Below, in pieces: positions 19,390-43,410 of a stretch of DNA of 64,000 nucleotides. Where the stretch lies: contig CAZWUJ010000013.1 of NCBI GenBank assembly GCA_964636705.1, positions 25,574 through 89,573 of the forward strand. Reading direction: 5' to 3'. The notes beneath the pieces are model-generated. The model did not search any database. It was not told the DNA's origin and worked only from the letters and a program-made list of their open reading frames with translations. This DNA is from an uncultured Vicinamibacteraceae bacterium (lineage in GTDB: Bacteria > Acidobacteriota > Vicinamibacteria > Vicinamibacterales > UBA8438). Made by a program: the position numbers and the translations under genes. The stretch's first letter is position 1; every line of letters starts with the position of its first letter.

Positions 19390-22300
19390 TCATTCTTGCA
19401 CGGCGGCCGCGCCGGCGGCGACCGGGGCGGGCGGCAGCAACTCGACCATCTCGCCCGAGAGAGTGCTCACGCGCGCCCCGGGCGTAACGATGCCCGCCAG
19501 GTTCATCGGGTCGGCGGCGGCGACGCGAACCCCGCGGCCCTGATCGATACGGCCGCCGTCGCGGCGGACGATGCGCAGCAGCTCCACCGCGTCGGGCCGC
19601 GCGAACTGCTCTCCCACGAAGCCGGCGACGAAGCGGCCGCCGCGCACCTCGCCGCGGGCCTCCATCCGGCGGAGGGACGCAAGCAGATCGCGCCACGGCG
19701 GCATCAGTGTCTCGCGACGGACGAGGTCACGGAAGACGACGCCCCAGCGCAGCAGCAACTGGCGCGCGAAGGCATCGGCGCGCTCGCGTTCGGCGGCGCG
19801 GTCCGGTTGGGCGCCGGGGTCGCCGGCCGATGCGCCGGCTTCCGCCCCTGCCGCGGTTCCGGCCTGAGCGCCCGTGCGTCCCGGCGCGAGCAGCGCCCAG
19901 CGGCCCGCGGTATGACGCGGGCGGGCGGCGCGGAAGCGGCCCTCTCCGCGACGGCGCTTCGGGTTGGTCAAAGCCCGCAGGTTGTCGAAACCGTCGGCCG
20001 TAACGAGGCCGGCCGCGACCAGTTCCCAGAGTCCGTCCTCGACCTCGCTCGGCAACCGGCGCGTCTCCTGCACGAGCTCGCGAAGGAACGACGCGCCCCG
20101 CCGCTGGAGGGCATCGAGCACGGCCTGGGCGGGATGCGAGAGGACCGGCGGATGCGCATCCTCCCGATGGCCGCCGGGCGGGAGCAGCCAGTCGAGGTCT
20201 TCCCGCAGGAAGAGAGCGACTGGCGCGACGCGGGTGGGGCGGACGCGGCGCGCGCGGCCTCCGGCCGCCTCGCCGTTCTCGCCACCGTTCCGGGACTCGA
20301 AGGCCGGATGCGGCGACAACCGTCCCCACATCACTTCGCCCGACAGGCACAACTGGTCGAGCATCTCCGGGTCGTACTTCGCCATGCGGGCGGCAAGCAC
20401 GTCGCGTTCCCAGGCGGCGGCCGACACCTCGCAGCCCTGCAGTTGCTGAATCACCTGCAACAGGCCGGCGGCGCCGTGCAGCCTCGTCCCGTCCGAAAGA
20501 CGCTGCCAGCGCGCGAGGAAGCGGACGAGATCGGCCGACGTCACCGGTTCGATCTCGCGGCGGAGGCGGCCGAGGGTGAGGCGATGGATCCTCGCGAGGA
20601 CGCGCCGGTTGCACCATTCCGTCGGTGCCCCTTCGGCGCGGCCGGCCGCCGTGAAGCGGCCCCGGAGCACCTGGCCCTCGCCCTCGAGGCGGGTGAGCGC
20701 CGCCGTGATCCGATCCTCGGGAATGGCGAGAGTGGCGGCGAGGGCGGGCGCGGTCATCGGGCCCACCGAGTCGAGCCAGCCGCGCAGGATCTCGACCACG
20801 GCGGCGTCGGCGGTGTCCGGCGTCGGCTGATCGATGTCGGGAGGATCCGGATCGACGGCGGCGGCCGGGTGGACGAGGCGCGCGGTGCGGAGGCGTTCGG
20901 TGGCGACCCAGAAGGTGGGAGGTGCGGGTGCCGGCCTGGAGGCCGGCGGACCAGGGGCCGGCCTGGAGGCCGGCGGACCAGGGGCCGGCGTGGAGGCCGG
21001 CGGACCTTGTGCCGGCCTGGAGGCCGGCGGACCGGGGGGCGGACCGGTGAGGGTGGTGGCGCGGCCGGTGTCGGCGAGACTGGCGAACCATTCGCGCCAG
21101 GCGTCGCGCGGCGGGACGAGGATGAGCGTCAGCAGGGCGTCATGGAGCTCCTCGGGGTCGCGCACGACGGGCCATGCTTCGTCCGCCACCTCCCGGATCG
21201 CCGCCTCGTCGAGCGCGCCCATCTCGCCGCCGTCGTCCCCGAGCGTCCGGCGCAACTGGACGGCGCGCGCGCGGCGTTCCTCGAGCGGGGCATCGTCGAG
21301 GAAGGCGTAGGGGTTCGCGTTCAGAATCTCGTGGCCGAGGGGCGACGGTTCGGCCGTGTCGATGGCGTGCGTCGCGACCGTGCCGTCCTCGATGCCGGCA
21401 ACCAGGTCGCGCAATCCGTCGATGTCCATCGCCTCGTGCAGGCAGTCGCGGATGGTCTCGTCCACCAGGGGGTGGTGCGGGATCCGGATCTCGCCGCTCA
21501 GGTTCTCGGCGCACGCCACCTGGTCGGGGAAGACCGCCGCAAGGAGATCGTCGGATCGCATCCGCAGGATGGGCGGCGGCACCTTCTTGCCGCCCGCGAA
21601 GCGGAGGATGGCGAGGGAGCGCGACGCGTTCCAGCGCCAGCGCGCCCCGAACATCGGCGACGGAAGCATCGCCTGGGTCAGCACGTCCTCCACCGTTTCC
21701 GGATGCAGGAAGCGGAAGACCACCTCGAGGGGAAAGCTGTGCTGCTCGGCCAGCGAGATCACGAGGCCGTTGTCGGTGGCCGCCGCCTGGAGCTCGACGT
21801 TGAAGCTGCGGCAGAAGCGCTTGCGGAGCGCGAGCCCCCAGGCGCGGTTGACGCGGGCGCCGAGCGGTGCGTGCAGCACGAGTTGCATGCCGCCGCTCTC
21901 GTCGAAGAACCGTTCCGCAACCAACGTGCGGTTCGACGGCACCGCGCCCAGCACGCCCACGCCCGCCCGCACGTAGGCGACGGCCTGCTCGGCCCCGGAA
22001 CGGTCCAGGCCGCATTCCCGGACGAGAAACGCGACCGCATCATCGTCGGCGTCCGCCGCGGCAACGTGCTCACGGATGCGGGACACCTCGTCCGACAGCT
22101 CGCGCGTTCTCCCCGGCGCTTCTCCGAGCCAGAACGGCACGGACGGCGCGGCGCCGTGCGCATCCTCCACCCGGACGCGCCCCGCCTCGACCCGGCGGAT
22201 CCGCCACGATGTCGTCCCGAGCAGGAAGACGTCGCCGGCCAGGCTCTCGACGGCGAAGTCCTCGTCGACCGTTCCCACAGTCGTTCCCTCCGGCTCCGCC

Positions 22301-23820
22301 ACCACCTGGTAGTTGGCGTTGTCCGGGATCGCGCCGCCCGACGTGATCGCCGCCAGGCGCGCGCCGCGGCGGCCGCGCACGACGCCGTTCACCCGATCGC
22401 GGTGCAGCCAGGCTCCATTCCGGCCCCTCGACGAGGCGATGCCGTCCGACAGCATCGTCACCACCTCGTCGAATATCCCGCGCGGCAGGTCGCGGTACGG
22501 GTAGGCGCTCCGCACCAGGTCGAAGAGCTCGTCCTCGTTCCAGTCGCCGGCGCCCGCCGCCGCGACGACCTGCTGCGCCAGCACGTCGCGCGGCCACGGC
22601 ATCACCGTCCGCTCGTCGAGCAGTCCGCCCCGAATGGCGCTCACCAGCGCCGCGCATTCGATCAGCTCGTCGCGCGTCGCCGGGAAGAAGCGGCCCTTCG
22701 GGACGAACGCCCGATCCACCTTGTGGCCGGAACGGCCGATGCGCTGCAGCGCGACGGCGATCGAGCGGGGCGTGCCGATCTGGCAGACCAGATCGACCGA
22801 ACCGATGTCGATGCCGAGTTCGAGCGACGCGGTGGCGACGATGGCCCGGAGCCGTCCCTCCTTGAGCGCCGTCTCGGCCGCCTGCCGCAGCCGCCGGGAC
22901 AGGCTGCCATGATGCGACAGCACCGCGTCGTCGCCCAGGCGCTCCGCCAGTTGATGCGCCACGCGTTCGGCGAGGCGCCGCGTGTTGACGAAGACGATCG
23001 TCGTCCGGTGCGACAGGATGAGCTCCGCGATCCGGTCGTAGATCTCTCCCCACATGCCGGTCGTGGCGACGGCCCCCAGTTCTTCCTGCGGCGCCTCGAC
23101 CGCGAGGTCCAGTTCGCGGCGGTGACCCGAATCGACGACCGCGGTCTCGCCGCCGTCCACCTCCCCGGTGAGGAACGACGCGACCTCCGAGATGGGCTTC
23201 ACCGTCGCGGACAGTCCGATGCGCTGCGGGCGCGCGCCGCCGGTGGATCTCACGAGGTGGTCGAGCCGGGCCAGACTGATGGCGAGGTGCGCGCCCCGCT
23301 TGTCGTCCAGCACGGCGTGGATCTCGTCGACGATCACCGTCGTTGCGGTCGAGAGCATCGCCCGGCTCCGCTCCGCGGTCAGCAGAATGAACAGCGACTC
23401 GGGTGTCGTGACGAGGATGTGCGGCGGCCGCCGCACCATCTGCTCGCGATCCCAGGCCGGCGTATCGCCGGTCCGGATCGCGGTGCGGATGTCCGCCAAC
23501 TCGGCGCCGGACGCCTCCGCCAGCGCACCCAACTCCGCGAGCGGCTCCTGGAGGTTCCGGTGGATGTCGTTGCTGAGCGCCTTGAGCGGCGAGACGTAGA
23601 CGACCGAGGTCCGATCTTCCAGCCGCCCTTCGAGCCCTTCGGACACCAGGCGATCGATGCAGCTCAGGAACGCCGCCAGCGTCTTGCCCGAGCCGGTCGG
23701 GGCCGAGATCAGCAGGTCGCTCCCCTCCCGGATCAGCGGCCATGCCTCCGCCTGAGCTGGCGTCGCCTGCCCGAACTTCCCCCTGAACCACTCCGCCGTC
23801 AGCGAACAGAAACCGTCCAT
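19390..23820 (-). CDS. lhr: ATP-dependent helicase Lhr (large DEAD/DEAH helicase)
   Basis: 'ATPAQAEAWPLIREGSDLLISAPTGSGKTLAAF', 'VIVDEIHA' and 'HHGSLS' are visible, and the length is about 1480 aa. Start is either ATG 23820 or GTG 23832. Confidence 0.9.
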   Translation of the reverse strand: MDGFCSLTAEWFRGKFGQATPAQAEAWPLIREGSDLLISAPTGSGKTLAAFLSCIDRLVSEGLEGRLEDRTSVVYVSPLKALSNDIHRNLQEPLAELGALAEASGAELADIRTAIRTGDTPAWDREQMVRRPPHILVTTPESLFILLTAERSRAMLSTATTVIVDEIHAVLDDKRGAHLAISLARLDHLVRSTGGARPQRIGLSATVKPISEVASFLTGEVDGGETAVVDSGHRRELDLAVEAPQEELGAVATTGMWGEIYDRIAELILSHRTTIVFVNTRRLAERVAHQLAERLGDDAVLSHHGSLSRRLRQAAETALKEGRLRAIVATASLELGIDIGSVDLVCQIGTPRSIAVALQRIGRSGHKVDRAFVPKGRFFPATRDELIECAALVSAIRGGLLDERTVMPWPRDVLAQQVVAAAGAGDWNEDELFDLVRSAYPYRDLPRGIFDEVVTMLSDGIASSRGRNGAWLHRDRVNGVVRGRRGARLAAITSGGAIPDNANYQVVAEPEGTTVGTVDEDFAVESLAGDVFLLGTTSWRIRRVEAGRVRVEDAHGAAPSVPFWLGEAPGRTRELSDEVSRIREHVAAADADDDAVAFLVRECGLDRSGAEQAVAYVRAGVGVLGAVPSNRTLVAERFFDESGGMQLVLHAPLGARVNRAWGLALRKRFCRSFNVELQAAATDNGLVISLAEQHSFPLEVVFRFLHPETVEDVLTQAMLPSPMFGARWRWNASRSLAILRFAGGKKVPPPILRMRSDDLLAAVFPDQVACAENLSGEIRIPHHPLVDETIRDCLHEAMDIDGLRDLVAGIEDGTVATHAIDTAEPSPLGHEILNANPYAFLDDAPLEERRARAVQLRRTLGDDGGEMGALDEAAIREVADEAWPVVRDPEELHDALLTLILVPPRDAWREWFASLADTGRATTLTGPPPGPPASRPAQGPPASTPAPGPPASRPAPGPPASRPAPAPPTFWVATERLRTARLVHPAAAVDPDPPDIDQPTPDTADAAVVEILRGWLDSVGPMTAPALAATLAIPEDRITAALTRLEGEGQVLRGRFTAAGRAEGAPTEWCNRRVLARIHRLTLGRLRREIEPVTSADLVRFLARWQRLSDGTRLHGAAGLLQVIQQLQGCEVSAAAWERDVLAARMAKYDPEMLDQLCLSGEVMWGRLSPHPAFESRNGGENGEAAGGRARRVRPTRVAPVALFLREDLDWLLPPGGHREDAHPPVLSHPAQAVLDALQRRGASFLRELVQETRRLPSEVEDGLWELVAAGLVTADGFDNLRALTNPKRRRGEGRFRAARPRHTAGRWALLAPGRTGAQAGTAAGAEAGASAGDPGAQPDRAAERERADAFARQLLLRWGVVFRDLVRRETLMPPWRDLLASLRRMEARGEVRGGRFVAGFVGEQFARPDAVELLRIVRRDGGRIDQGRGVRVAAADPMNLAGIVTPGARVSTLSGEMVELLPPAPVAAGAAAVQE
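20930..21045. repeat. Four REP-like units with 27-nt period inside the lhr ORF
   Basis: Units lie at 20930-52, 20957-79, 20984-21006 and 21011-33, with a partial GGCGGACC at 21038-45. They are translated on the minus strand as 'GPPPGPPASRPAQGPPASTPAPGPPASRPAPGPPASRPAPAPP'. Confidence 0.85.
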
Positions 23821-23888
23821 CGCGTCCCCCACAGTCTACGCCGGGCCGCCCCGCCGCCATCCGGACCCTTGGAACAAGAGTAGGATGG

Positions 23889-30708: not shown

Positions 30709-33543
30709 ATGCCTTCAGCGTCAGGCGTCGGCCCGAACGTGGAGGAGCGTGTCCTCGACGTCATTGCCGAGCTGGCTGGCGAGTTGCGCGGCGGGGCGGA
30801 GGGCGGCGCGGTTGAGGTCAAGAGCGGCGACTCGCTGGAACGCGACCTCGGAATCAGCAGCCTGGAACGGGTAGAGCTGCTGATCCGCCTGGAGCGCAGT
30901 TTCGGCATCCGCCTGGGCGACGACGCCATGATGGCGGCGGAGACGCCGGCCGACCTGGCCGCGGCCATCGCCCGGGCCGCTGCCGCGCCGGCCGTCGCGA
31001 AGACGCCTGCTTCCGGGGTTGGCGCGCTCGGGGAGGCGGCGCCCGCCGCCGAATCGAGAGTCGCCACTCCCTCGGCGGAGGGCCCGCCGGCGCATGCGCA
31101 GACCATTATCGAGGCGCTTGCCTGGCACGTCGAGCGGACGCCCGACCGCGTCCACATGCACCTGCGCGAGGACGACGGCAACGAGGTCACGCTGACCTAC
31201 GGCTGGCTCTGGGACGAAGCCCGCGCCGTGGCCGGCGGTCTGACGGCGCGCGGCCTCGGACGGGGCGACCGCGTCGCCCTCATGCTCAGAACCGAGCGGG
31301 CGTTCTTTCCCACCTTCATCGGGACGCTGATGGCGGGCTGTGTTCCCGCGCCCCTCTACCCGCCGTTCCGGGCCGACCGGATCGAGGAGTACGCGGCGCG
31401 GCAGGTGGCCATTCTCCGCAACGCGGGCGCGCGGCTCCTGGTCGCGTTCGCCGAGGTGCAGCGCGTGGCGGCGCTGCTGAAGCAGCAGGCGCCGTCGCTC
31501 GAGGCGGTCGTCGGAACGGACGAGCTCCCGGGCGAGGCGCGGCGCCCGGTCCCGACCACGGGAGACGACCCCGCGCTCATCCAGTACACCTCCGGCAGCA
31601 CCGGCGAGCCGAAGGGCGTCCTGCTCACCAACGCCAACGTGCTGGCCAACATCCGGGCCATCATCGAGCGCCTCGGCTTTGCAGGGAATGACGTTGGCGT
31701 GAGCTGGCTGCCGCTCTACCACGACATGGGGCTGATCGGCGCCTGGCTGGGCACGCTCTACACCGGCGCGCCGCTCGTGCTGATGTCGCCGCTCGCGTTT
31801 CTCGCGCGTCCCGTCCGCTGGCTGCAGGCGCTCTCCACGCACCGCGGCACCGTCTCGCCGGCGCCCAACTTCGCTTACGACCTCTGCGTGTCGCGCATTT
31901 CCGATGACGAACTGGACGGACTGGATCTGCGCTCGGTACGCACCCTGCTCAACGGATCCGAGGCGGTCTCGCCCGACACGCTGCGACGCTTCAACGAGCG
32001 GTTCGCACCGTACGGACTCGATCCGACGGCGATCCTGCCCGTCTACGGCCTTGCCGAATGCACGGTCGGACTCGCCACGCCGACGGTTGGAACGCCGTTC
32101 CGGATCGATCGGATCGACCGGGAACGCTACGAGTTGTCAGGCGAGGCGGCAGCGGCGGCAGCGGACGACGCCCACGCGCTGGAGTTCGTCTCGTGCGGCC
32201 GGGTGCTGGCAGGCCACGACATGGCGGTGGTCGACGACGCGAACGCCCGGGTGCCGGAACGCCGCCGCGGCCGAATCCGATTCCGCGGCCCATCGGCAAC
32301 ACGGGGCTACTTCCGCAACCCGGAGGCGACCAGCACGCTGATCGGCGACGACGGCTGGCTCGAGACGGGCGACGTCGGCTACATCGCGGACGGCGATCTC
32401 TTCATCACCGGCCGTTCGAAGGACCTGATCATCAAGGCCGGCCGCAACCTCGCGCCGCCCGAAGCAGAAGAGCTGGCCAGCGCCGTCGACGGCATCCGCG
32501 CCGGCTGCGTCGCCGCCTTCGGCGTGCGCGATGAGGCACGGGGAACCGAACAGTTCATCGTCGTCGCAGAGACTCGCGTAACCGATGCCAAGGCGCGAAC
32601 CACACTCCGCCAGGCAGTGAACCGGGCGATCACCGGCGCGATGGGCGTCGCCCCGGATCGGATTGTGCTGGCGCCGCCGGGATCGGTCCTCAAGACGTCG
32701 AGCGGCAAGATTCGCCGCGGCGCAACGCGCGACGCCTGGCTCAGCGGAGCCATCGACCGGGGCCGCTCCAACATGGTGGCTCAGTGGATCCGCCTCGGGG
32801 CCGGGGCGGCGGGCGCGATGGTAGGCCGGGTAGCCGGACGCGCGGGACACATCCTTTTTTCCGGCTATGCCTACACGCTCGTGTTCGGCACCGCCATCCC
32901 CGCTTCGGTGCTCCTGCGGTTCTGGCCCCGCAGCCGGCCATCGGATGCGCTCATCGGCCGCTGGACGCGTTTCGTAATGGCGCTCACGCGATGCCCGATC
33001 GACGTGGTGATGCCGGAAAGCGGACGGATCGAGCCGCCCGTCGTCTTCGTCGCCAATCACGCCAGCTTCCTCGATCCGCCGGTGATGATGGCGACTCTGC
33101 CGGTCCCCGCCCGTTTCGCGGCCAAGGCCAAGCTAGCGCGCTATCCGGTGGTCGGCCCCGCGATCCGCAAGGGCGGCCACATCCGCCTGCACAAGACGGA
33201 TCAGGCCCAGCGCATCGAGGATGCGGGCACCATCCGCGGGCCGCTCGACGCGGGCGAGGCGCTCTTCGTCTTCCCCGAGGGAACCTTCGAGCGGGCGCCG
33301 CGCCTCCTCCCCTTCCGGCTCGGCGCCTTCCGCGCCGCCGTCGACGCCGGCTGCCCCATCGTCCCCGTCGCCATCCACGGCACCCGCTACATCTGGCCCG
33401 CCAACACGCTGCTGCTTCGACCCGCCCGCATCACCGTCACGTTCGGAGAGCCGCTACACCCGCGGGGAACCGACTGGTCGGAGATCGTGCGCCTGCGCGA
33501 CGAGGCGCGAGCCTTCATCTCCACGCACTGCCGCGAGCCCTAG
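30709..33543 (+). CDS. Tri-domain ACP / fatty-acyl-AMP ligase / lysophospholipid (PlsC-type) acyltransferase
   Basis: Carrier-protein site 'DLGISSLERVELL', adenylation motifs 'IQYTSGSTGEPKGV', 'YGLAECT' and 'GDVGY...GRSKDLIIKAGRN', and acyltransferase motifs 'ANHASFLDPP' and 'FPEGTF'. Confidence 0.8.
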   Translation: MPSASGVGPNVEERVLDVIAELAGELRGGAEGGAVEVKSGDSLERDLGISSLERVELLIRLERSFGIRLGDDAMMAAETPADLAAAIARAAAAPAVAKTPASGVGALGEAAPAAESRVATPSAEGPPAHAQTIIEALAWHVERTPDRVHMHLREDDGNEVTLTYGWLWDEARAVAGGLTARGLGRGDRVALMLRTERAFFPTFIGTLMAGCVPAPLYPPFRADRIEEYAARQVAILRNAGARLLVAFAEVQRVAALLKQQAPSLEAVVGTDELPGEARRPVPTTGDDPALIQYTSGSTGEPKGVLLTNANVLANIRAIIERLGFAGNDVGVSWLPLYHDMGLIGAWLGTLYTGAPLVLMSPLAFLARPVRWLQALSTHRGTVSPAPNFAYDLCVSRISDDELDGLDLRSVRTLLNGSEAVSPDTLRRFNERFAPYGLDPTAILPVYGLAECTVGLATPTVGTPFRIDRIDRERYELSGEAAAAAADDAHALEFVSCGRVLAGHDMAVVDDANARVPERRRGRIRFRGPSATRGYFRNPEATSTLIGDDGWLETGDVGYIADGDLFITGRSKDLIIKAGRNLAPPEAEELASAVDGIRAGCVAAFGVRDEARGTEQFIVVAETRVTDAKARTTLRQAVNRAITGAMGVAPDRIVLAPPGSVLKTSSGKIRRGATRDAWLSGAIDRGRSNMVAQWIRLGAGAAGAMVGRVAGRAGHILFSGYAYTLVFGTAIPASVLLRFWPRSRPSDALIGRWTRFVMALTRCPIDVVMPESGRIEPPVVFVANHASFLDPPVMMATLPVPARFAAKAKLARYPVVGPAIRKGGHIRLHKTDQAQRIEDAGTIRGPLDAGEALFVFPEGTFERAPRLLPFRLGAFRAAVDAGCPIVPVAIHGTRYIWPANTLLLRPARITVTFGEPLHPRGTDWSEIVRLRDEARAFISTHCREP

Positions 33544-33559
33544 CCGCTGCCCCGGCCTT

Positions 33560-33690
33560 GGTCCGCCGGCCTCCAGGCCGGCCTTGGTGCTCCCGCATTG
33601 GTCCGCCGGCCTCCAGGCCGGCACGGTTCCCACGGTCCGCCGGCCTCCAGGCCGGCACGGTTCCCACGGTCCGCCGGCCTCCAGGCCGGC
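33560..33690. repeat. Array of four REP-like hairpin units
   Basis: GGTCCGCCGGCCTCCAGGCCGGC occurs at 33560-82, 33600-22, 33634-56 and 33668-90, with spacing 40, 34 and 34 nt. The spacer ACGGTTCCCAC is repeated. The array starts 16 nt after the stop of the tri-domain gene. Confidence 0.85.
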
Positions 33691-33738
33691 ACTAGCTCCT
33701 CCGAAAGCTCCTTGAAGAGACCGAGGATTCGCTCGCGA

Positions 33739-34155
33739 TCAAGGAACCCACTTATGCCGTTCTCCACCCCGGCTGTCGAGATCACGCGGGTCTGGTAGCG
33801 CCCCGTGCCGCAGGAACGCGCCCGGCGCGAATACCAACGCGTTCATCCGAATCGACCGGATAGGTGACACGACCCAGGTCCTGTCGAGGAACCGTTCCGG
33901 CTCGTCCACCCATGCCGGCGGTTCGTGCCCGTGAAGTCGCGCCACGTGCTCCACCACCGCGGCCAGGAGCGCGTCCCACTTGGTGTGCGTCAGTGGCACC
34001 CGCTCCGCCAGCGCTTCCCTTTGCTCCGCCTCGCTACAGGCATGGAATCCCCGCGGCAAGCCGTGCACGACCATCCGATAGATGTCCGTTTCCGGCCAAC
34101 CCTCCGCGACTCCCTTGATGTAGTTCGACAAAGAGAAACGCAATGTTCCGCTCAT
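33739..34155 (-). CDS. Hypothetical protein
   Basis: ORF read from ATG 34155 ('MSGTLRFSLSNYIKGVAEGW...'). No motif recognised. The coding call rests only on length and position. Confidence 0.4.
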   Translation of the reverse strand: MSGTLRFSLSNYIKGVAEGWPETDIYRMVVHGLPRGFHACSEAEQREALAERVPLTHTKWDALLAAVVEHVARLHGHEPPAWVDEPERFLDRTWVVSPIRSIRMNALVFAPGAFLRHGALPDPRDLDSRGGERHKWVP

Positions 34156-34244
34156 CGTTAGCAAAGTACACCCTTGAGTAGCGCGACGGCGTGAGCCGAT
34201 TCCTCCCTCGTTTGCGCACCACCAAACAGGGGGAGGAAACACCG

Positions 34245-34814
34245 ATGCGGAGCTCACCGATCGCCCTGTCTGCCGTCGCCAGCACCCTGGCGCTTGCCGT
34301 CCTGGCCCCGTGGCCGGCCAACGGCCAGACCCGAGCCCCCGACGTCCGGGTCACGTGGGGCTACAACTTCGGCCTGGATGACACACCGCCTCATGGCCTC
34401 GTCGGCGGTCTCTCGGTTACGACCCCGGTCACGGATCACATTCGCGTCGGCGGCGAAGCCCAGAAGGTCAACCAGTTCGGCCCTTACTACGACTACAAGG
34501 GCCGCGCGCTGCTCGCGCGCGCCCTCGTCGAGTACGAACTGCTCCCGGGACGGCGTTTCAACCCCTACTGGATGGTCGGCGCCGGCCCCACGCAATACCG
34601 CACGCGCTATCCGGTCGGCTACGTCTACGACGAGGCCCTCGACGACTACATCCCGATCGACGCCTTCGAATGGGATGTCCAGCACCGTTTCCATTTCACG
34701 GGCGGCATCGGCCTCCGCGCCTATGTCAGCGACCACATCTTCGTGAATCCCGAACTACGTCTCGGACTTCTTCCGCTCGTTCAGGGAACCATCGCGGTTG
34801 GGGTCTCGTTCTGA
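34245..34814 (+). CDS. Small outer-membrane beta-barrel protein
   Basis: GGGAGGA lies upstream of ATG 34245. Signal peptide 'ALSAVASTLALAVLAPWPANGQ'. Alternating aromatic beta-strand pattern with terminal 'GTIAVGVSF'. Confidence 0.6.
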   Translation: MRSSPIALSAVASTLALAVLAPWPANGQTRAPDVRVTWGYNFGLDDTPPHGLVGGLSVTTPVTDHIRVGGEAQKVNQFGPYYDYKGRALLARALVEYELLPGRRFNPYWMVGAGPTQYRTRYPVGYVYDEALDDYIPIDAFEWDVQHRFHFTGGIGLRAYVSDHIFVNPELRLGLLPLVQGTIAVGVSF

Positions 34815-34842
34815 GAGCGCCGCCCGACAGGAGAGCAAAACC

Positions 34843-35343
34843 ATGACACATGCACGCACCCCGACACGCTTCACCGTCCTGCTGGCGGCGATCACGCTGC
34901 TGACCGGCTGCGCCACGCTGCGCCCGGCGACATTGCCGCAACCTGTTCCCGACAACACTCCGGACCTGACGCGCTGGGAACGCGTGCAGGTGCTGACTCC
35001 GGGTTCCCGCATCCGCGTCGAACTGGACACGGGCGGGTGGATGCGAGCCCGCTACCGCGATGCGGACGCCGAGACGCTGACCGTGATCAACGGGACCCGG
35101 TCGACCGTGCTGCAGCGGTCGGACGTGAAGCGCGTGCGTCTGGTCAGCACGCGCGCGGGTGAGTTCAGCATGTGGGGCCTGGGCGCCGGCAGCGCGGCCG
35201 GCGCCGTCCTGGGCATGCTCGTCGACGAGGCGGGCGGTGGCGCGGTTGCGTTCACCACCCCGTGGTTCGGTGGCGTCGGCGCCGCGGCGGGCGCGTTGCT
35301 CGGGCTGACGCCGCTGGAGTCGACCGTCTACGAGGCGCCGTGA
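34843..35343 (+). CDS. Lipoprotein with C-terminal Gly-zipper
   Basis: Lipobox 'LLTGC' after 'MTHARTPTRFTVLLAAITLL'. C-terminus 'GLGAGSAAGAVLGMLV...GGVGAAAGALLGL'. Confidence 0.6.
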   Translation: MTHARTPTRFTVLLAAITLLTGCATLRPATLPQPVPDNTPDLTRWERVQVLTPGSRIRVELDTGGWMRARYRDADAETLTVINGTRSTVLQRSDVKRVRLVSTRAGEFSMWGLGAGSAAGAVLGMLVDEAGGGAVAFTTPWFGGVGAAAGALLGLTPLESTVYEAP

Positions 35344-35431
35344 AGCCCGTGATATCGTTTGCCCACGCGCACCCAGGTGGCATAGGAAGGCGACGGCGGC
35401 ACTCGCGATTCCCCCTCCCCGGCGCGGATCC

Positions 35432-36465
35432 GTGACGCCGTGGCCCGGCCTGTCGTTCCTTGCCGAGCCGCGTCCGAGCCGCAGCGACCCGACGGGCGTG
35501 CGCCAACCGACGCTGGCGCAGGTGTTCGACGACTCGCTGTTCCTGGTGCAGTCGCACGAAGAGGACAGCGGCGGACGCTTCGCGGCGTGGGGGTGCGCCG
35601 ACTACCAGAACCTGAGCGGTGGCGGCGGCCCCGGGCGCGTCAACTGGAACGGCGACGTATCGAGCTGGCAAGCGGGGGCCGACGCGCGCATCAACCCCGA
35701 CCTTCTGGCCGGCGTCTCCGTGTCGCGGTCGCGGGGCTCGTTCGACTACCAGGGGGTTGGCCGGAACCGGGACGGCGCCGCCGGCTACGAGCTGAAGCTG
35801 ACCAGTTTGCATCCCTATCTGAGCTGGTCGGCCTTGCCGGACCTGGACGTGTGGGGAACCGCCGGCCACGGTTGGGGACGGCTCGTGATCCTGGACGAGC
35901 ATGCGGGAGAGGTCCATGCGAGCCCCGCCACGCTGGACTCGGGCATGGTGGGCGTGAACGGCCGGGTGCTGTCGCGCGGTGCGACGACGTTGAGGTTGAA
36001 GGGCGAATGGGCACTTGCGCAGATGGACGTCGCCCGCTCCCCCGAGGCGTTCGAGGTCCCAACGATGAACATGCGGCGGCTGCGGGTGGGCACTGAAGTC
36101 AACCGCCAGCACGTGTACGCCTCCGGCGTGTCGCTGACTCCCTGGGGGGAGTTCGGCCTGCGCCATGACGGGGGCGACGGGGAGACCGGCTCCGGGCTGG
36201 AACTGGGCGGCGGACTCCGCTACCGGAATCGCGAGGCAGGCCTGATCGCGGAAAGCTACGGCCGCTGGCTCACCGCGCGCAAGGGCACGCTCCGGGAATG
36301 GGGCTTCGGTGCGCTCGTCCGTTTCGCGCCGGGGACCGGCGGCCTCGGCCCGTCGGTGAGCCTGATGCCGTCCTGGGGTGAGACCGCGAGCGGCGTGCGG
36401 CGCCTGTGGGAACGCGGGGCTGCCGACCCGCTGCCTTACGACACGCCGGGCGAGCGTATGCGAAG
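35432..36465 (+). pseudogene. Orphan autotransporter beta-barrel domain, lacking signal peptide and passenger and truncated at the 3' end
   Basis: 'RFAAWGCADYQNLSG', 'WQAGADARINPDLLAGVSVSRSRGSFDY', 'LTSLHPYLSW' and 'GLELGGGLRYRN' look like an autotransporter translocator. Similarity ends near 36460, where the antisense DUF433 gene begins to match. Confidence 0.55.
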
Positions 36466-36659
36466 CAGGCTCGGATGTCGTCACGTTCGAGCCAAGGGTA
36501 GCCCTCCAGCAAGGTCTCGAACGTATCGCCGGCAGCCAGCATGCCAATTACGTGTTCGACCGCCAAGCGCCGATTCCTGATGATGGGCTTTCCGCCGAAG
36601 ATGTCGGGATTCGACGGGATTCGCCGGAGCAGAGCCGCTTCGTCGACGTTGGGTGTCAT
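36270..36659 (-). CDS. DUF433-domain protein with an aberrant C-terminal tail
   Basis: 'IPSNPDIFGGKPIIRNRRLAVEHVIGMLAAGDTFETLLEGYPWLERDDIRACFAYA' is a complete DUF433 domain. The remaining ~50 codons are antisense to the autotransporter remnant. Confidence 0.6.
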   Translation of the reverse strand: MTPNVDEAALLRRIPSNPDIFGGKPIIRNRRLAVEHVIGMLAAGDTFETLLEGYPWLERDDIRACFAYARPACRKAAGRQPRVPTGAARRSRSHPRTASGSPTGRGRRSPARNGRAHRSPIPGACPCAR

Positions 36660-36708
36660 CGCGGGTATCCGTTCATTCTCATGCTACTCGATCGCCGATT
36701 CGCCGACT

Positions 36709-36856
36709 GCCGGCCTGGAGGCCGGCGGACCGACGGAATGCCGGTCTGGAGGCCGGCGGACCGACGGAATGCCGGTCTGGAGGCCGGCGGACCGACGGAA
36801 TGCCGGCGTGGACGCCGGCGGACCAGTAAGAATGCCGGCGTGGACGCCGGCGGACC
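36709..36856. repeat. Array of five REP-like hairpin units (31-32 nt period)
   Basis: Units lie at 36709-31, 36740-62, 36771-93, 36802-24 and 36834-56. The spacer GACGGAAT repeats three times. Stem variants are GCCGGTC/GGCCGGC (T.G) and GCCGGCG/CGCCGGC (compensated). The array ends 1 nt before the topoisomerase B stop codon (36858-36860). Confidence 0.9.
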
Positions 36857-36857
36857 G

Positions 36858-38813
36858 CTAGACGTCGAGGTCGAGGGCCTGGTCGGCCCGTTCCATGATG
36901 AAGCGGAAGCGGGCTGACGGGTCCTTGCCCATGAGGTTGGCGATCACCCGGTCGGTGCGGTGCTGATCGTCGACGGCGACGCGCAGCAGGCGGCGGGTCT
37001 CGGGGTTGAGCGTGGTCTCCCAGAGCACCTTCGGCATCATCTCGCCGAGCCCCTTGAAGCGCGTGATCTCGGGGTTGCCGCGGCCGTTGTTGCGGGCGTT
37101 GACGATGGCGTCGCGGTGGGCGTCGTCGAGCGCCCAGTGGGTCTCCTTGCCGATGTCGACCCGGTAGAGCGGGGGCTGGGCGAGGTAGACCTTGCCGTGC
37201 GCGATCAATTCGGGGAGGAAACGGTAGAAGAAGGTGAGCAGCAGCGTCGCGATGTGGTTCCCGTCGGAGTCCGCGTCGGCCAGGATGATGATGCGGTCGT
37301 AGCGCAGCCGGTCGATATCGAACGTCTTGCCGATGCCGCAGCCGAGCGCGGTGACGAGGTCGGACAGCTCCTTGTTCTCGAAGACCTTCGACGGGGCCGC
37401 GCTCTCGACGTTCAGCACCTTGCCGCGCAGTGGGAGGATGGCCTGGCGCGTCCGGTCGCGCCCCTGCTTCGCCGACCCGCCGGCGGAGTCCCCCTCCACG
37501 ATGAACAGCTCGCTCCCGCCGCGCGCGCTCCCCGTGCAGTCGCTCAGCTTGCCCGGCAGGTTCAGCCGGTTGGTGGTGGCGCTCTTGCGCGTGACCGCCT
37601 GCTGCGCGGCGCGGCTCGCCTGCCGCGCCCGCGCGGCCAGGATGATGCGGGCGACGATGGCCTCGGCCGAGCTGATGTTGTGGTTCAGCCAGTGCTCCAG
37701 TGCGGGACGGATGGCGCCGTCGACAATCGGGGCCAGCTCGGGGTTGTTCAGCCGGTCCTTGGTCTGTCCCTGGAACTGCGGGTCCAGCAGGAAGACGCTG
37801 AGCACCCCGGCCAGTCCTTCCCGGATGTCGTCGGCGGTGAGCGCCACGCCCTTCGGCGTGAGGTTGTGCGTCTCGATGAAGTTGCGGACCGCCTTGCCCA
37901 GTCCCGCGCGCAGTCCGGTCTCGTGGGTGCCGCCGGAGCCGGTCGGGATGCCGTTGACGTAGCTGCGGAACCGCTCGTCGGTCGCCTCGGTCCAGCGCAG
38001 CGCCACCTCGATGCGCGTCCCGCTCTCGGCATGGTCGCGCTGGAGGACGAACGCGGCGTCGTGCACCGGCGCGGCGTCCATCTCCTTGACGATCCGGGCG
38101 AGATAGTCGGGCAGCCCGTCGTCGTGGCGGAACTTCTCCTCGGTCCCGCGCGCCTCGTTCTCGAAGATGAACTCGACGCCACCGTGGATGTAGCTCGCAA
38201 TCTCGATCCGCTCCCGGAGCAGCGCCTCGTCGAACGCCGTCTTCGGAAAGATGCGCGGGTCGGGCCGGAACCGGACGGTCGTGCCGGAGCCGCGCGCCGC
38301 CTTCACCCTGGCGAGCGGCCCGGCCGGCTTGCCGCGCCGGAACGTCTGCCGCCACAGCGCGCCGTCGCGCTTCGACTCCGCCACCAGCTCTGCCGACAGC
38401 GCGTTCACGACGCTGGCCCCGACGCCGTGCAGGCCGCCCGCGGCCCGGTACGACCCGTTCCCGAACTTCCCGCCGGCGTGCAGCGTCGTGAAGATCACCT
38501 CCAGCGCGCTCTTGCGGCTGCCCTTGTGCTGATCCACCGGGATGCCGCGGCCGTCGTCCGACACCGTGATCGCCGACCCCTTCGCGTGCAGCGTCAGGCG
38601 CACCTGCCGGGCATGGCCGTTCATCGCCTCGTCGACCGCGTTGTCGAAGATCTCCCAGACCAGGTGGTGCAGGCCGGCGGGTCCGACGCCGCCGATGTAC
38701 ATCCCGGGCCGCTTGCGGACGGGCGCGAGGCCTTCGAGAACGGTGATGTCCTTCGCCGTATATGACTGCGCCACGGTCCTGTCCGTCCGGAGGGGGGATC
38801 CGAAGCTTACCAT
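36858..38813 (-). CDS. Type IIA topoisomerase subunit B (GyrB/ParE family)
   Basis: 'LEGLAPVRKRPGMYIGG', 'GLHHLVWEIFDNAVDEA', 'DDGRGIPV', Toprim 'ELFIVEGDSAGGSAKQGRDR' and 'IIILADADSDGNHI'. Confidence 0.9.
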   Translation of the reverse strand: MVSFGSPLRTDRTVAQSYTAKDITVLEGLAPVRKRPGMYIGGVGPAGLHHLVWEIFDNAVDEAMNGHARQVRLTLHAKGSAITVSDDGRGIPVDQHKGSRKSALEVIFTTLHAGGKFGNGSYRAAGGLHGVGASVVNALSAELVAESKRDGALWRQTFRRGKPAGPLARVKAARGSGTTVRFRPDPRIFPKTAFDEALLRERIEIASYIHGGVEFIFENEARGTEEKFRHDDGLPDYLARIVKEMDAAPVHDAAFVLQRDHAESGTRIEVALRWTEATDERFRSYVNGIPTGSGGTHETGLRAGLGKAVRNFIETHNLTPKGVALTADDIREGLAGVLSVFLLDPQFQGQTKDRLNNPELAPIVDGAIRPALEHWLNHNISSAEAIVARIILAARARQASRAAQQAVTRKSATTNRLNLPGKLSDCTGSARGGSELFIVEGDSAGGSAKQGRDRTRQAILPLRGKVLNVESAAPSKVFENKELSDLVTALGCGIGKTFDIDRLRYDRIIILADADSDGNHIATLLLTFFYRFLPELIAHGKVYLAQPPLYRVDIGKETHWALDDAHRDAIVNARNNGRGNPEITRFKGLGEMMPKVLWETTLNPETRRLLRVAVDDQHRTDRVIANLMGKDPSARFRFIMERADQALDLDV

Positions 38814-41953: not shown

Positions 41954-43375
41954 ATGAGCGACAGCGACACGGGCCGACCCAAACGAACCTTCGATCGCGC
42001 GATCGTCGAGGGCCCGCTTCCCCGCGCCGTCTGGCGCATCGCCTGGCCCACCATGCTGCAGAACGTCATTGGCGGGATGCAGGGGATCATCGACCAGGCG
42101 ATGGTCGGCAACGTCGTGGGCCACATCGGCAACGCGGCGATCGGCGTCAGCACCCAGATATTCATCCTGGTGATCGTCTTCGTCGCCTCCGTCTTCAGCG
42201 GGATGGGGGTGCTCGTCGCCCGCTTCGCCGGCGCCAACGATTCCGACAAGGTGAACCGCGTCGTCTACCAGGCGTTCCTCACCGCGGTCGTGATGTCGCT
42301 GCTGATCCTGGCGCCCATCGGCTACGTCGCGGCGCCGGCGCTGCTCGCGATGGTGAACGCGGCGCCGGAGGTCCAGTCCGAAGCCCTGCCCTACCTCCGC
42401 ATCATGTTCGTGTTCAGCATCGGCATGCTGATCTTCTTCATGATGAGCGGCGCGCTCCGCTCCGCCGGCGATGCCCGGACGCCGCTCCGCCTGGGCGTGG
42501 TGATGACCGCGCTCAACATCGTGCTGAACGTCATCCTGATTGGCGGACTGGGTCCGATTCCGGCGTTCGGAACCATCGGGGCGGCGATGGGCACCGCGAT
42601 TGCGACCGGTGCGACCGCGCTGGTCTTCCTCTGGCTGCTCTTCTCGGATCGCCTCGTCGTCCACTTCTCCTGGCGGATGTCGTTCGCGCCCGACTGGCAG
42701 ATCATCCGCGAGCTGTTCCGCTTCGGCCTGCCGACCGGCTTCCAGGGGATCGTGATGAACATTGCCGGCCTGCTGCTCATCCGGTTCGTCGGATCGCTCG
42801 CCCAGAGCGCCGAGGCCCAGGCCGCCTATGCGGTCGGCTACACGCAGCTCTTTGCTCTAATCACCTGGACGTCGGTCGGGCTGATGGCCGCCACGGCGGC
42901 GGTGGCGGGACAGAACCTGGGCGCGGGCCGGCCGGAGCGAAGCACGCGCGCCGCGGTGGTCGCCGCCGGTTACGGCGTGGGTGGCGCGGCTGCGATCGGC
43001 GCGGCATTCCTGGCGTTTCCAGGTCCGCTGCTCGCCGTCTTCGGCATGACCAGCGGGCCGGCGTTCGACCTGGGACGGCAACTGCTCGCGTACCTTTCCA
43101 TTTCCGCCATCTTCGTCACCGTCGCGCTCATCTACACCGGCGGCCTGCAGGGGACCGGCGACACGCGGAGCCCGCTCTACATCTCGATCGTCTCGCAGGT
43201 GATCATTCCGATTGGCCTCTGCACCTACCTCCAGGCGACCACCGGCCTGGAAGCGTCCGACATCTGGCTGGCGATAGTGCTGGGCCATGTCACCCGCGCC
43301 TCGCTGAGCGTCGCCCGCTTCCACCAGGGCAAGTGGCGCGACATCGCCGTCGACATCGGACCGGCGCGGGCGTAG
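41954..43375 (+). CDS. MATE-family efflux transporter
   Basis: 473 aa with about 12 TM segments. 'LPRAVWRIAWPTMLQNVIGGMQGIIDQAMVG' is a typical MATE N-terminus. Confidence 0.85.
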   Translation: MSDSDTGRPKRTFDRAIVEGPLPRAVWRIAWPTMLQNVIGGMQGIIDQAMVGNVVGHIGNAAIGVSTQIFILVIVFVASVFSGMGVLVARFAGANDSDKVNRVVYQAFLTAVVMSLLILAPIGYVAAPALLAMVNAAPEVQSEALPYLRIMFVFSIGMLIFFMMSGALRSAGDARTPLRLGVVMTALNIVLNVILIGGLGPIPAFGTIGAAMGTAIATGATALVFLWLLFSDRLVVHFSWRMSFAPDWQIIRELFRFGLPTGFQGIVMNIAGLLLIRFVGSLAQSAEAQAAYAVGYTQLFALITWTSVGLMAATAAVAGQNLGAGRPERSTRAAVVAAGYGVGGAAAIGAAFLAFPGPLLAVFGMTSGPAFDLGRQLLAYLSISAIFVTVALIYTGGLQGTGDTRSPLYISIVSQVIIPIGLCTYLQATTGLEASDIWLAIVLGHVTRASLSVARFHQGKWRDIAVDIGPARA

Positions 43376-43387
43376 TCTCGCCGAGCT

Positions 43388-43410
43388 GGTTCGCCGCCCT
43401 CCAGGCCGGC
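43388..43410. repeat. Single degenerate REP-like unit
   Basis: GGTTCGCCGCCCTCCAGGCCGGC lies between the MATE stop and the next gene. The left stem arm is degenerate. Confidence 0.5.

Follow-up and report, generated by a model that had tools for sequence, protein, structure and literature searches.

A family of repetitive extragenic palindromes and its predicted cognate transposase in an uncultured member of the Vicinamibacterales

A GC-rich hairpin of 23 nt recurs in short tandem arrays in the 64,000-nt stretch of DNA analysed here (the window), which comes from an uncultured Vicinamibacteraceae bacterium of the acidobacterial order Vicinamibacterales and corresponds to C13:25574-89573 of its draft genome (G000; 3.83 Mb, 60 contigs, 67.4% G+C; positions outside the window are given by contig). 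Very probably, these hairpins are a family of repetitive extragenic palindromic (REP) elements maintained by a single cognate REP-associated tyrosine transposase (RAYT). An earlier note, made from the sequence of the window alone, had seen in them an element of REP/BIME type (BIME, bacterial interspersed mosaic element), a reading under which the family would extend beyond the window and a RAYT might be found elsewhere in the genome. Both are the case: the genome holds 206-224 copies on 36 of its 60 contigs, and it has one RAYT gene, outside the window, which is flanked by inverted copies of this very repeat.

The repeat family and its transposase gene

A consensus search recovers 16 copies of the unit in the window at three or fewer mismatches, against none in 100 dinucleotide-preserving shuffles, and these lie at exactly the sites listed before (5-56, 20930-21033, 33560-33690, 36709-36856 and 43388-43410). 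In an information profile of the genome copies the conserved core is T-GCCGGCC-TGGA-GGCCGGC-G[C/G]ACC, 24-25 nt long (in its fuller form T-GCCGGCC-TGGA-GGCCGGC-G-[C/G/a]-ACC), and the flanks are unconserved; position 20 of the plus-orientation unit is C in 116 copies, G in 89 and A in 17. Read by the REP convention, the unit opens with five unpaired nt, the foot GGT[G/C]C, followed by a GC stem of 7 bp closed by a 4-nt loop, GCCGGCC-TCCA-GGCCGGC, and by a trailing A, and the dinucleotide CT stands directly 5' of the foot in 30% of copies compared with a background of 4.8%. As single-stranded DNA, the 7-bp hairpin folds at about -9.4 to -10 kcal/mol for the consensus unit (C-type, on either strand) and for the variant whose arms are GCCGGCG/CGCCGGC (G-type), while units with a T.G pair fold more weakly, at about -6 kcal/mol. 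No Rfam 15 family reaches its gathering threshold anywhere in the window.

In the genome as a whole there are 206 copies at three or fewer mismatches, and the reversed genome used as a control gives no match at that threshold and nine at four mismatches. When weaker copies adjoining good ones are added, the total rises to 224 copies in 120 clusters, of which 57 are singletons and the largest are arrays of five. A covariance-model search returned at least 151 matches at E <= 0.01 and brought no gain over the pattern census.

The RAYT gene (C6:113155-113799; 214 aa) carries the sole Pfam Y1_Tnp match of the genome (C6:113485-113718, 44.8 bits). Three copies of the repeat in minus orientation lie 21-113 nt upstream of it and four in plus orientation lie 4-180 nt downstream, and all seven have their feet pointing outward. 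The locus, a RAYT gene bracketed by inverted repeat copies, is a REPtron. An alignment with 31 homologues shows the HUH motif (N125-H126-V-H128), W165 and Y186 of YIRWNP to be invariant. The AlphaFold model of the protein (predicted local distance difference test score, pLDDT, 78.8) finds its best PDB match in 4ER8_A, the E. coli RAYT in complex with a REP hairpin (E 6e-7; template-modelling score, TM, 0.62 on the target), and the IS200/IS605 transposases rank after it. The protein also fails the NCBIfam IS200 model (28.6 against 55) and passes the NCBIfam REP_Tyr_transpos model NF047646.

The association of enzyme and repeat extends to relatives. The repeat is present in all seven genomes of the genus, and a search of 34 further genera in the family and order found it in none. 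Three genus genomes with a RAYT 78-100% identical carry 208, 196 and 150 copies; one (G002) whose RAYT is 65% identical and lacks flanking repeats carries 21; and the genomes in which a RAYT was not found carry 47, 8 and 3. This pattern agrees with decay of the family after loss of the enzyme. The closest transposases are from metagenome-assembled genomes (MAGs) of the Vicinamibacterales, OZ253543.1 (G005; 78% identical) and OZ252008.1 (G002; 64-65%), and the same REPtron layout recurs in G003, in G005 and in further MAGs of Acidobacteria. More widely, 67 of 81 homologous RAYT loci, with hosts in Acidobacteriota, Verrucomicrobiota, Planctomycetota and some Proteobacteria, have adjoining the gene a hairpin whose foot reads GG[A/T]VC and whose stem begins with GC, and at 47 loci such hairpins stand on both sides, pointing inward. 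The design shared by the 67 loci further includes a stem of 6-7 bp, a TCC(A) or TTCA loop and the trailing A, and the stems themselves are lineage-specific (GCCGGCC, GCGAGTC, GCGGGCG, GCGGAA and others). That so many loci share this design is hard to explain unless the enzyme and the repeat belong together.

Stem subtypes and the growth of arrays

The earlier note had drawn attention to compensatory changes in the stem, with both arms altered together at 36802, 36834 and 5-27 and T.G pairs at 36740 and 36771. All these variants are present, and the compensatory signal holds up genome-wide: 24 cells show both-sided changes compared with 6.5 +/- 1.9 in shuffles, a value reached by none of 500 shuffles (57 distinct sequences), and slid controls collapse. 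The signal is confined to the two loop-proximal pairs of the seven in the stem. The loop-closing pair (7-12) is CG in 168 copies, GC in 49, TA in two and AT in one, with a non-Watson-Crick combination in four; the next pair (6-13) is CG in 205 and TA in nine. The G-type stem, with its 49 copies, is a propagated subfamily and largely one inherited event, so that few independent compensatory events are represented. The further suggestion that the T.G pairs imply wobble pairing in plus-sense RNA did not survive the census, in which departures from pairing are of G.T type in ten cases and of A.C type in five (p = 0.30). From the E. coli precedent, the expected substrate of a RAYT would be single-stranded DNA.

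Genome-wide, 80 neighbour pairs are head-to-tail and 24 are inverted, of which 20 are body-to-body and four have their feet facing. Of the 20 body-to-body pairs, 13 join a G-type to a C-type copy, against an expectation of 33% (p = 0.003); among the 80 direct neighbours seven pairs are heterotypic. The window contains one such BIME-like heterotypic dimer, in which the copies at 5-27 (-; G-type) and 34-56 (+; C-type) are separated by 6 nt, with bodies facing and feet outside. Thus, of the original REP/BIME label, the REP half is borne out and the BIME half applies in part, to the minority of alternating pairs and their mixed composition. In the congener G003, inverted G-type/C-type pairs about 38 nt apart were observed (for example C8:20958/20996, C22:84162/84204 and C25:143673/143711). 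They look much commoner there than in the window's genome, and the balance between head-to-tail arrays and BIME-like dimers seems to vary between species within the genus.

In the window, Tandem Repeats Finder reports three arrays, with periods of 27, 34 and 31 nt. Array B (20930-21033, +) has four copies at a period of 27 nt and lies in frame within the lhr helicase gene. Array C (33560-33690, -) consists of four head-to-tail C-type copies, with the spacer ACGGTTCCCAC occurring twice. Array D (36709-36856, +) has five head-to-tail copies at a period of 31 nt, in the order of one C-type, two with the T.G pair and two G-type, separated by 8-9-nt spacers that read GACGGAAT three times and AGTAAGAAT once; the repeated spacers of both arrays are as first described. 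The fifth site, a degenerate single copy designated array E (GCCGGCCTGGAGGGCGGCGAACC; 43388-43410, -), lies 12 nt past the stop of a gene ending at 43375.

Two lines of evidence bear on how these arrays arise. Within the genome each array has its own spacer: the 80 spacers comprise 67 distinct sequences, a spacer repeats the one before it exactly in 13 of 29 cases and differs from it by one base in several others, and neighbouring copies are identical in 53% of cases compared with 13% of random pairs. Between genomes, the orthologous sites were compared in four congeners (G001, G003, G004 and G005) at 85-92% DNA identity. The array D site has five copies here, one in G003, a half copy (GCCGGCGCACC) in G005 and none in G001 and G004. 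The array C site has four copies here, one (G-type) in G003 and none in G001 and G004. The array E copy, degenerate here, is intact in G003 and has no counterpart in G001, G004 and G005, and the array B site retains copies or remnants in all four congeners. Orthologous sites with none, half, one or five copies, together with array-specific spacers, show that arrays grow in place: a site receives its founding copy once, after which the array lengthens, shortens and decays where it stands.

Partial copies occur as well. In the genome, one to three of them, made up of the foot plus the 5' arm (GGTGCGCCGGCC[T]), stand in front of 48 of 223 copies, and decayed sites in congeners are marked by remnants of the 3' arm plus foot (GCCGGCGCACC). 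One example of the foot-plus-5'-arm kind in the window lies at 33552-33559, directly before array C. Since GCCGGC is self-complementary, each arm repeats the other directly as well as in inversion, and slippage or deletion between them would therefore give half copies; alternatively, half copies may arise from RAYT strand transfer at C|T, as modelled for the tandem amplification of BIMEs in E. coli (PMC3333891). A search for a target-site motif or duplication around singletons brought up no conserved feature other than the trailing A and the CT 5' of the foot. A CTAG adjoining some copies seems to derive from TAG stop codons. At the array C site in G003, the sole orthologous site looked at for target duplication, CTAGCC stands on both sides of the copy.

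Position relative to genes and competing explanations

The positions of the clusters were scored against a gene map from our own codon-bias caller (3118 calls covering 90% of the genome), which is crude and has unreliable start sites. By this map 96 of the 120 clusters lie outside gene calls and 24 inside. Convergent gaps hold 40 clusters, co-directional gaps 49 and divergent gaps six, where about 15, 65 and 15 would be expected from the numbers of each gap type (chi-square p about 1e-11), and the median distance from the upstream stop codon to the cluster is about 20 nt. In the window, array D lies 1 nt from the topoisomerase stop codon (36858-36860) and array C 16 nt past the end of the tri-domain acyltransferase gene (33543), as first described. 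In co-directional gaps the foot comes first on the sense strand in 32 clusters and last in nine (p = 4e-4); the sense strand of both genes flanking array D reads GGTCC-hairpin-A.

By analogy with E. coli TnpA-REP, the HUH/Tyr enzyme would bind the folded hairpin and its foot on single-stranded DNA, cut nearby and rejoin the strands, and in this way would seed copies at new sites. Once a site has a copy, the comparisons above show that the array grows or shrinks in place by duplication or deletion of units of one REP plus spacer. Copies are retained at places where the damage is small: up to about 20 nt past stop codons, chiefly between convergent genes, or in frame in tolerant loops of proteins. 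The orientation bias relative to transcription suggests a second constraint, acting at the RNA level or coupled to transcription. E. coli REPs have been shown to protect transcripts from exonucleases, and the 3' stem-loops described here may, by analogy, shield transcripts in the same way.

On a rival account the hairpins would primarily be transcription terminators or stabilisers of mRNA 3' ends that spread by ordinary duplication and selection, and the nearby transposase would be incidental. Such an account draws on the clustering about 20 nt past stop codons, the enrichment between convergent genes, an orientation biased to transcription and not to GC skew, the strong folding of array D as minus-strand RNA (-105.1 kcal/mol, z = -6.6) and a weakly T-rich tail after the first copy past the topoisomerase gene. 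It is nevertheless unlikely. A T-run of at least four within 12 nt follows only four of 224 hairpins, so that the hairpins are not intrinsic terminators; near-identity over 23 nt at 120 loci, including an unpaired foot, is unlike what convergent selection for stem-loops would produce; and neither the presence of at least eight arrays within coding sequences nor the bracketing of the genome's only Y1 transposase by seven copies fits it. A function at 3' ends fits the REP-RAYT explanation as a secondary role, not as a different origin. Somewhat less probable again is that the repeats are miniature inverted-repeat transposable elements (MITEs) moved in trans by an insertion sequence of the DDE type, or else a mere palindrome prone to slippage or recombination with no dedicated enzyme. 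Local duplication and deletion of arrays indeed needs no transposase, and the half copies are explicable by slippage between the GCCGGC of the two arms. However, the unit is one hairpin with an asymmetric foot and has no terminal inverted repeats around a core, its spread to 120 separate loci requires a copying step, and the foot-plus-hairpin design adjoins the gene at those 67 of 81 RAYT loci across several phyla. Short palindromic repeats with short spacers in arrays of up to five might also recall CRISPR arrays or other loci that acquire spacers, but this hardly merits belief given that the spacers are 4-30 nt long and identical or near-identical within an array, where CRISPR spacers are unique and about 30 nt long, that the repeat measures only 23 nt, and that its 120 loci, half of them single-copy, occupy 3' untranslated gaps and the insides of genes; these points suffice although no search for cas genes was made.

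The REP-RAYT explanation, which we prefer, has several observations weighing against it. The transposase passes the REP_Tyr_transpos model by a thin margin (81.2 bits against a cut-off of 80), and a sequence-only PDB search with it returned no match. That it binds or cuts these hairpins is a prediction. The foot GGT[G/C]C differs from the GTAG of E. coli, whose enzyme needs GT[AG]G; that tag is absent from the foot here, which shares GT and not AG. The orientation of the repeats has no association with local GC skew (p = 0.47), so the replication-strand signature of single-strand transposition is not seen. The relation between copy number and RAYT comes from seven related, non-independent genomes. 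Unreliable start sites mean that many of the 24 clusters inside gene calls are mis-called starts, and intragenic status was counted only where Pfam confirms it on both sides of the insert. Finally, in the REP doublets forming hairpins (REPINs) of Pseudomonas fluorescens, the proposed replicating unit is an inverted doublet, whereas here there are 57 singletons, 80 direct pairs and 20 body-to-body pairs.

Comparison with known REP systems

By its general features the family belongs with the REP/RAYT systems of E. coli and Pseudomonas. The closest parallel is the REP/BIME and REPtron system of E. coli (4ER8; Ton-Hoang et al. 2012, PMC3333891; Nunvar et al. 2010, PMC2817692). Both have a short palindrome, GC-rich and imperfect, whose 5' foot is unpaired and which numbers more than 100 copies, most of them located after genes, and a single-copy HUH/Tyr transposase bracketed by inverted copies. 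In both, two stem subtypes preferentially combine in inverted dimers (13 of 20 here), as do the Y and Z REPs, and units are amplified in tandem. The CT enriched beside the element here is the dinucleotide at which the E. coli RAYT cleaves (C|T; PMC3333891), and the predicted fold of the acidobacterial enzyme is most similar to 4ER8. In contrast, apart from the foot, the stem here is a perfect 7 bp where binding in E. coli requires a stem mismatch; head-to-tail pairs (80) outnumber inverted ones (24); the enzyme, at 214 aa, has an N-terminal extension and is 14% identical to 4ER8 in the structural alignment; and the host is an acidobacterium and not a proteobacterium.

The GTAG and CGTC super-families of REPs and the terminal inverted repeat-associated tyrosine transposases (TIRYTs) described by Di Nocera et al. 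(2013, PMC3733652) offer a second comparison. Their repeats are tagged stem-loops occurring as singletons, dimers and clusters, with in-frame intragenic copies notably in proteins of DNA metabolism, as in the present family. Neither tag applies here: the CGTC test finds its complement GACG only in a spacer of array D, and flanks are unconserved genome-wide. Tyrosine transposases were already known in Acidobacteria (PMC3733652); most of those have flanking inverted repeats that do not constitute repeat families, with one exception in Koribacter, whereas the flanks here are the genome's own 220-copy repeat. The inverted-repeat motif GGGGWSAS of that study, compared by eye, does not match the foot. 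With the REPINs of P. fluorescens (Bertels and Rainey 2011, PMC3116915) the family shares non-autonomous repeats tied to a vertically inherited single-copy RAYT, and copy numbers that are high with a RAYT and low without one.

Within the classification of Quentin et al. (2018, PMC6006769), the transposase carries the TnpA-Y1 class 2 signature (HuH as NHVH, Y---NP and an SS tail motif). That study already records REP types without a GT[AG]G foot, namely subclass 2.6 and, in Acidobacteria and Planctomycetes, a class 3 whose foot is CnGA. The combination of NHVH, W-M, YIRWNP and 214 aa, compared by motif description, has no exact row in its table, and GG[A/T]VC is not among the feet given in its main text. 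The GG[A/T]VC clade and its foot may be undescribed, or they may fall within an already catalogued subclass. A literature search on REPs and RAYTs in Vicinamibacteria or Verrucomicrobia found nothing specific. It is conceivable, though we would not yet favour it, that the hairpins with a GG[A/T]VC foot make up another tagged REP super-family, a third one after GTAG and CGTC, with its own RAYT clade; in the present lineage the family amplifies mainly head-to-tail and has repeatedly been incorporated in frame into housekeeping enzymes as Pro/Ala/Gly-rich linkers.

Host genes, annotation and significance

At least eight arrays lie in frame inside coding sequences and are translated as Pro/Ala/Gly-rich inserts, in which the repeat is read as AGLEAGAP or GPPASRPA depending on its orientation. 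Some of the arrays with periods of 27, 30, 33 and 36 nt are explained by these inserts. Codogenic REPs are documented (PMC3733652). In PurH (C6:106808-108514), GltX (C9:38429-40126), IspE (C6:86901-87911) and ThyX (C4:12304-14091) Pfam domains are found on both sides of the array, and in a DnaE2-type polymerase (C17:27291-30704), which has two array sites, a single Pfam domain match spans the insert. Two further cases are less well supported: an acetyl-xylan-esterase-like (AXE1-like) protein (C16:15933-16982), whose sole Pfam match comes after the insert, and a large membrane protein (C6:95970-98066), a candidate case. Within the window, array B falls at about residues 933-967 of the lhr helicase (19390-23832, -), between the DEAD_assoc and WH3_Lhr domains.

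The remaining arrays of the window adjoin identifiable genes. Array D is placed between the stop codon of a type II topoisomerase B-subunit gene with GyrB/ParE domains (36858-38813, -; Pfam HATPase_c, DNA_gyraseB, Toprim and DNA_gyraseB_C), whose start was trimmed by our gene caller, and the start of a DUF433 gene (36270-36659, -; Pfam DUF433, 75.5 bits) downstream. Array C comes after a gene with Pfam PP-binding, AMP-binding and acyltransferase domains (30709-33543, +). The two arrays form the edges of a variable segment (about 33550-36850) at which synteny breaks among congeners. Between them, from about 33550 to 36860, lie small genes, the DUF433 gene and an open reading frame (ORF) with an Autotransporter beta-domain (35432-36580, +; 37 bits), a content that is not conserved in G001, G003, G004 and G005. 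This ORF overlaps the DUF433 gene convergently by about 310 nt, and probably at least one of the boundaries is misplaced or else one of these genes is decaying. G005 carries, 2.3 kb away, a duplicate of the final 756 nt of the topoisomerase gene at 89% identity, and G001 has a 122-nt fragment.

REP arrays are free of stop codons in several frames and give rise to spurious ORFs and over-extended gene starts, for example at 33540-33785 (-). For annotators, the repeats create spurious ORFs, fragment assemblies and add low-complexity peptides to essential proteins, and automatic annotation of these genomes likely inherits false ORFs and starts driven by REPs.

To our knowledge, nearly all that has been worked out about REPs and their domesticated transposases comes from Proteobacteria. 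The present case adds a new REP family, together with its RAYT, from a phylum that has received little study, and the foot, the perfect stem and the head-to-tail habit of this family differ from known systems in detail and not in kind. It provides a complete system in an uncultured lineage of soil and sediment: the repeat with its subtypes, the gene for the enzyme, and relatives that possess or lack that enzyme. Given that the foot is different and the stem perfectly paired, the family also provides a natural test of how RAYTs read their substrates.

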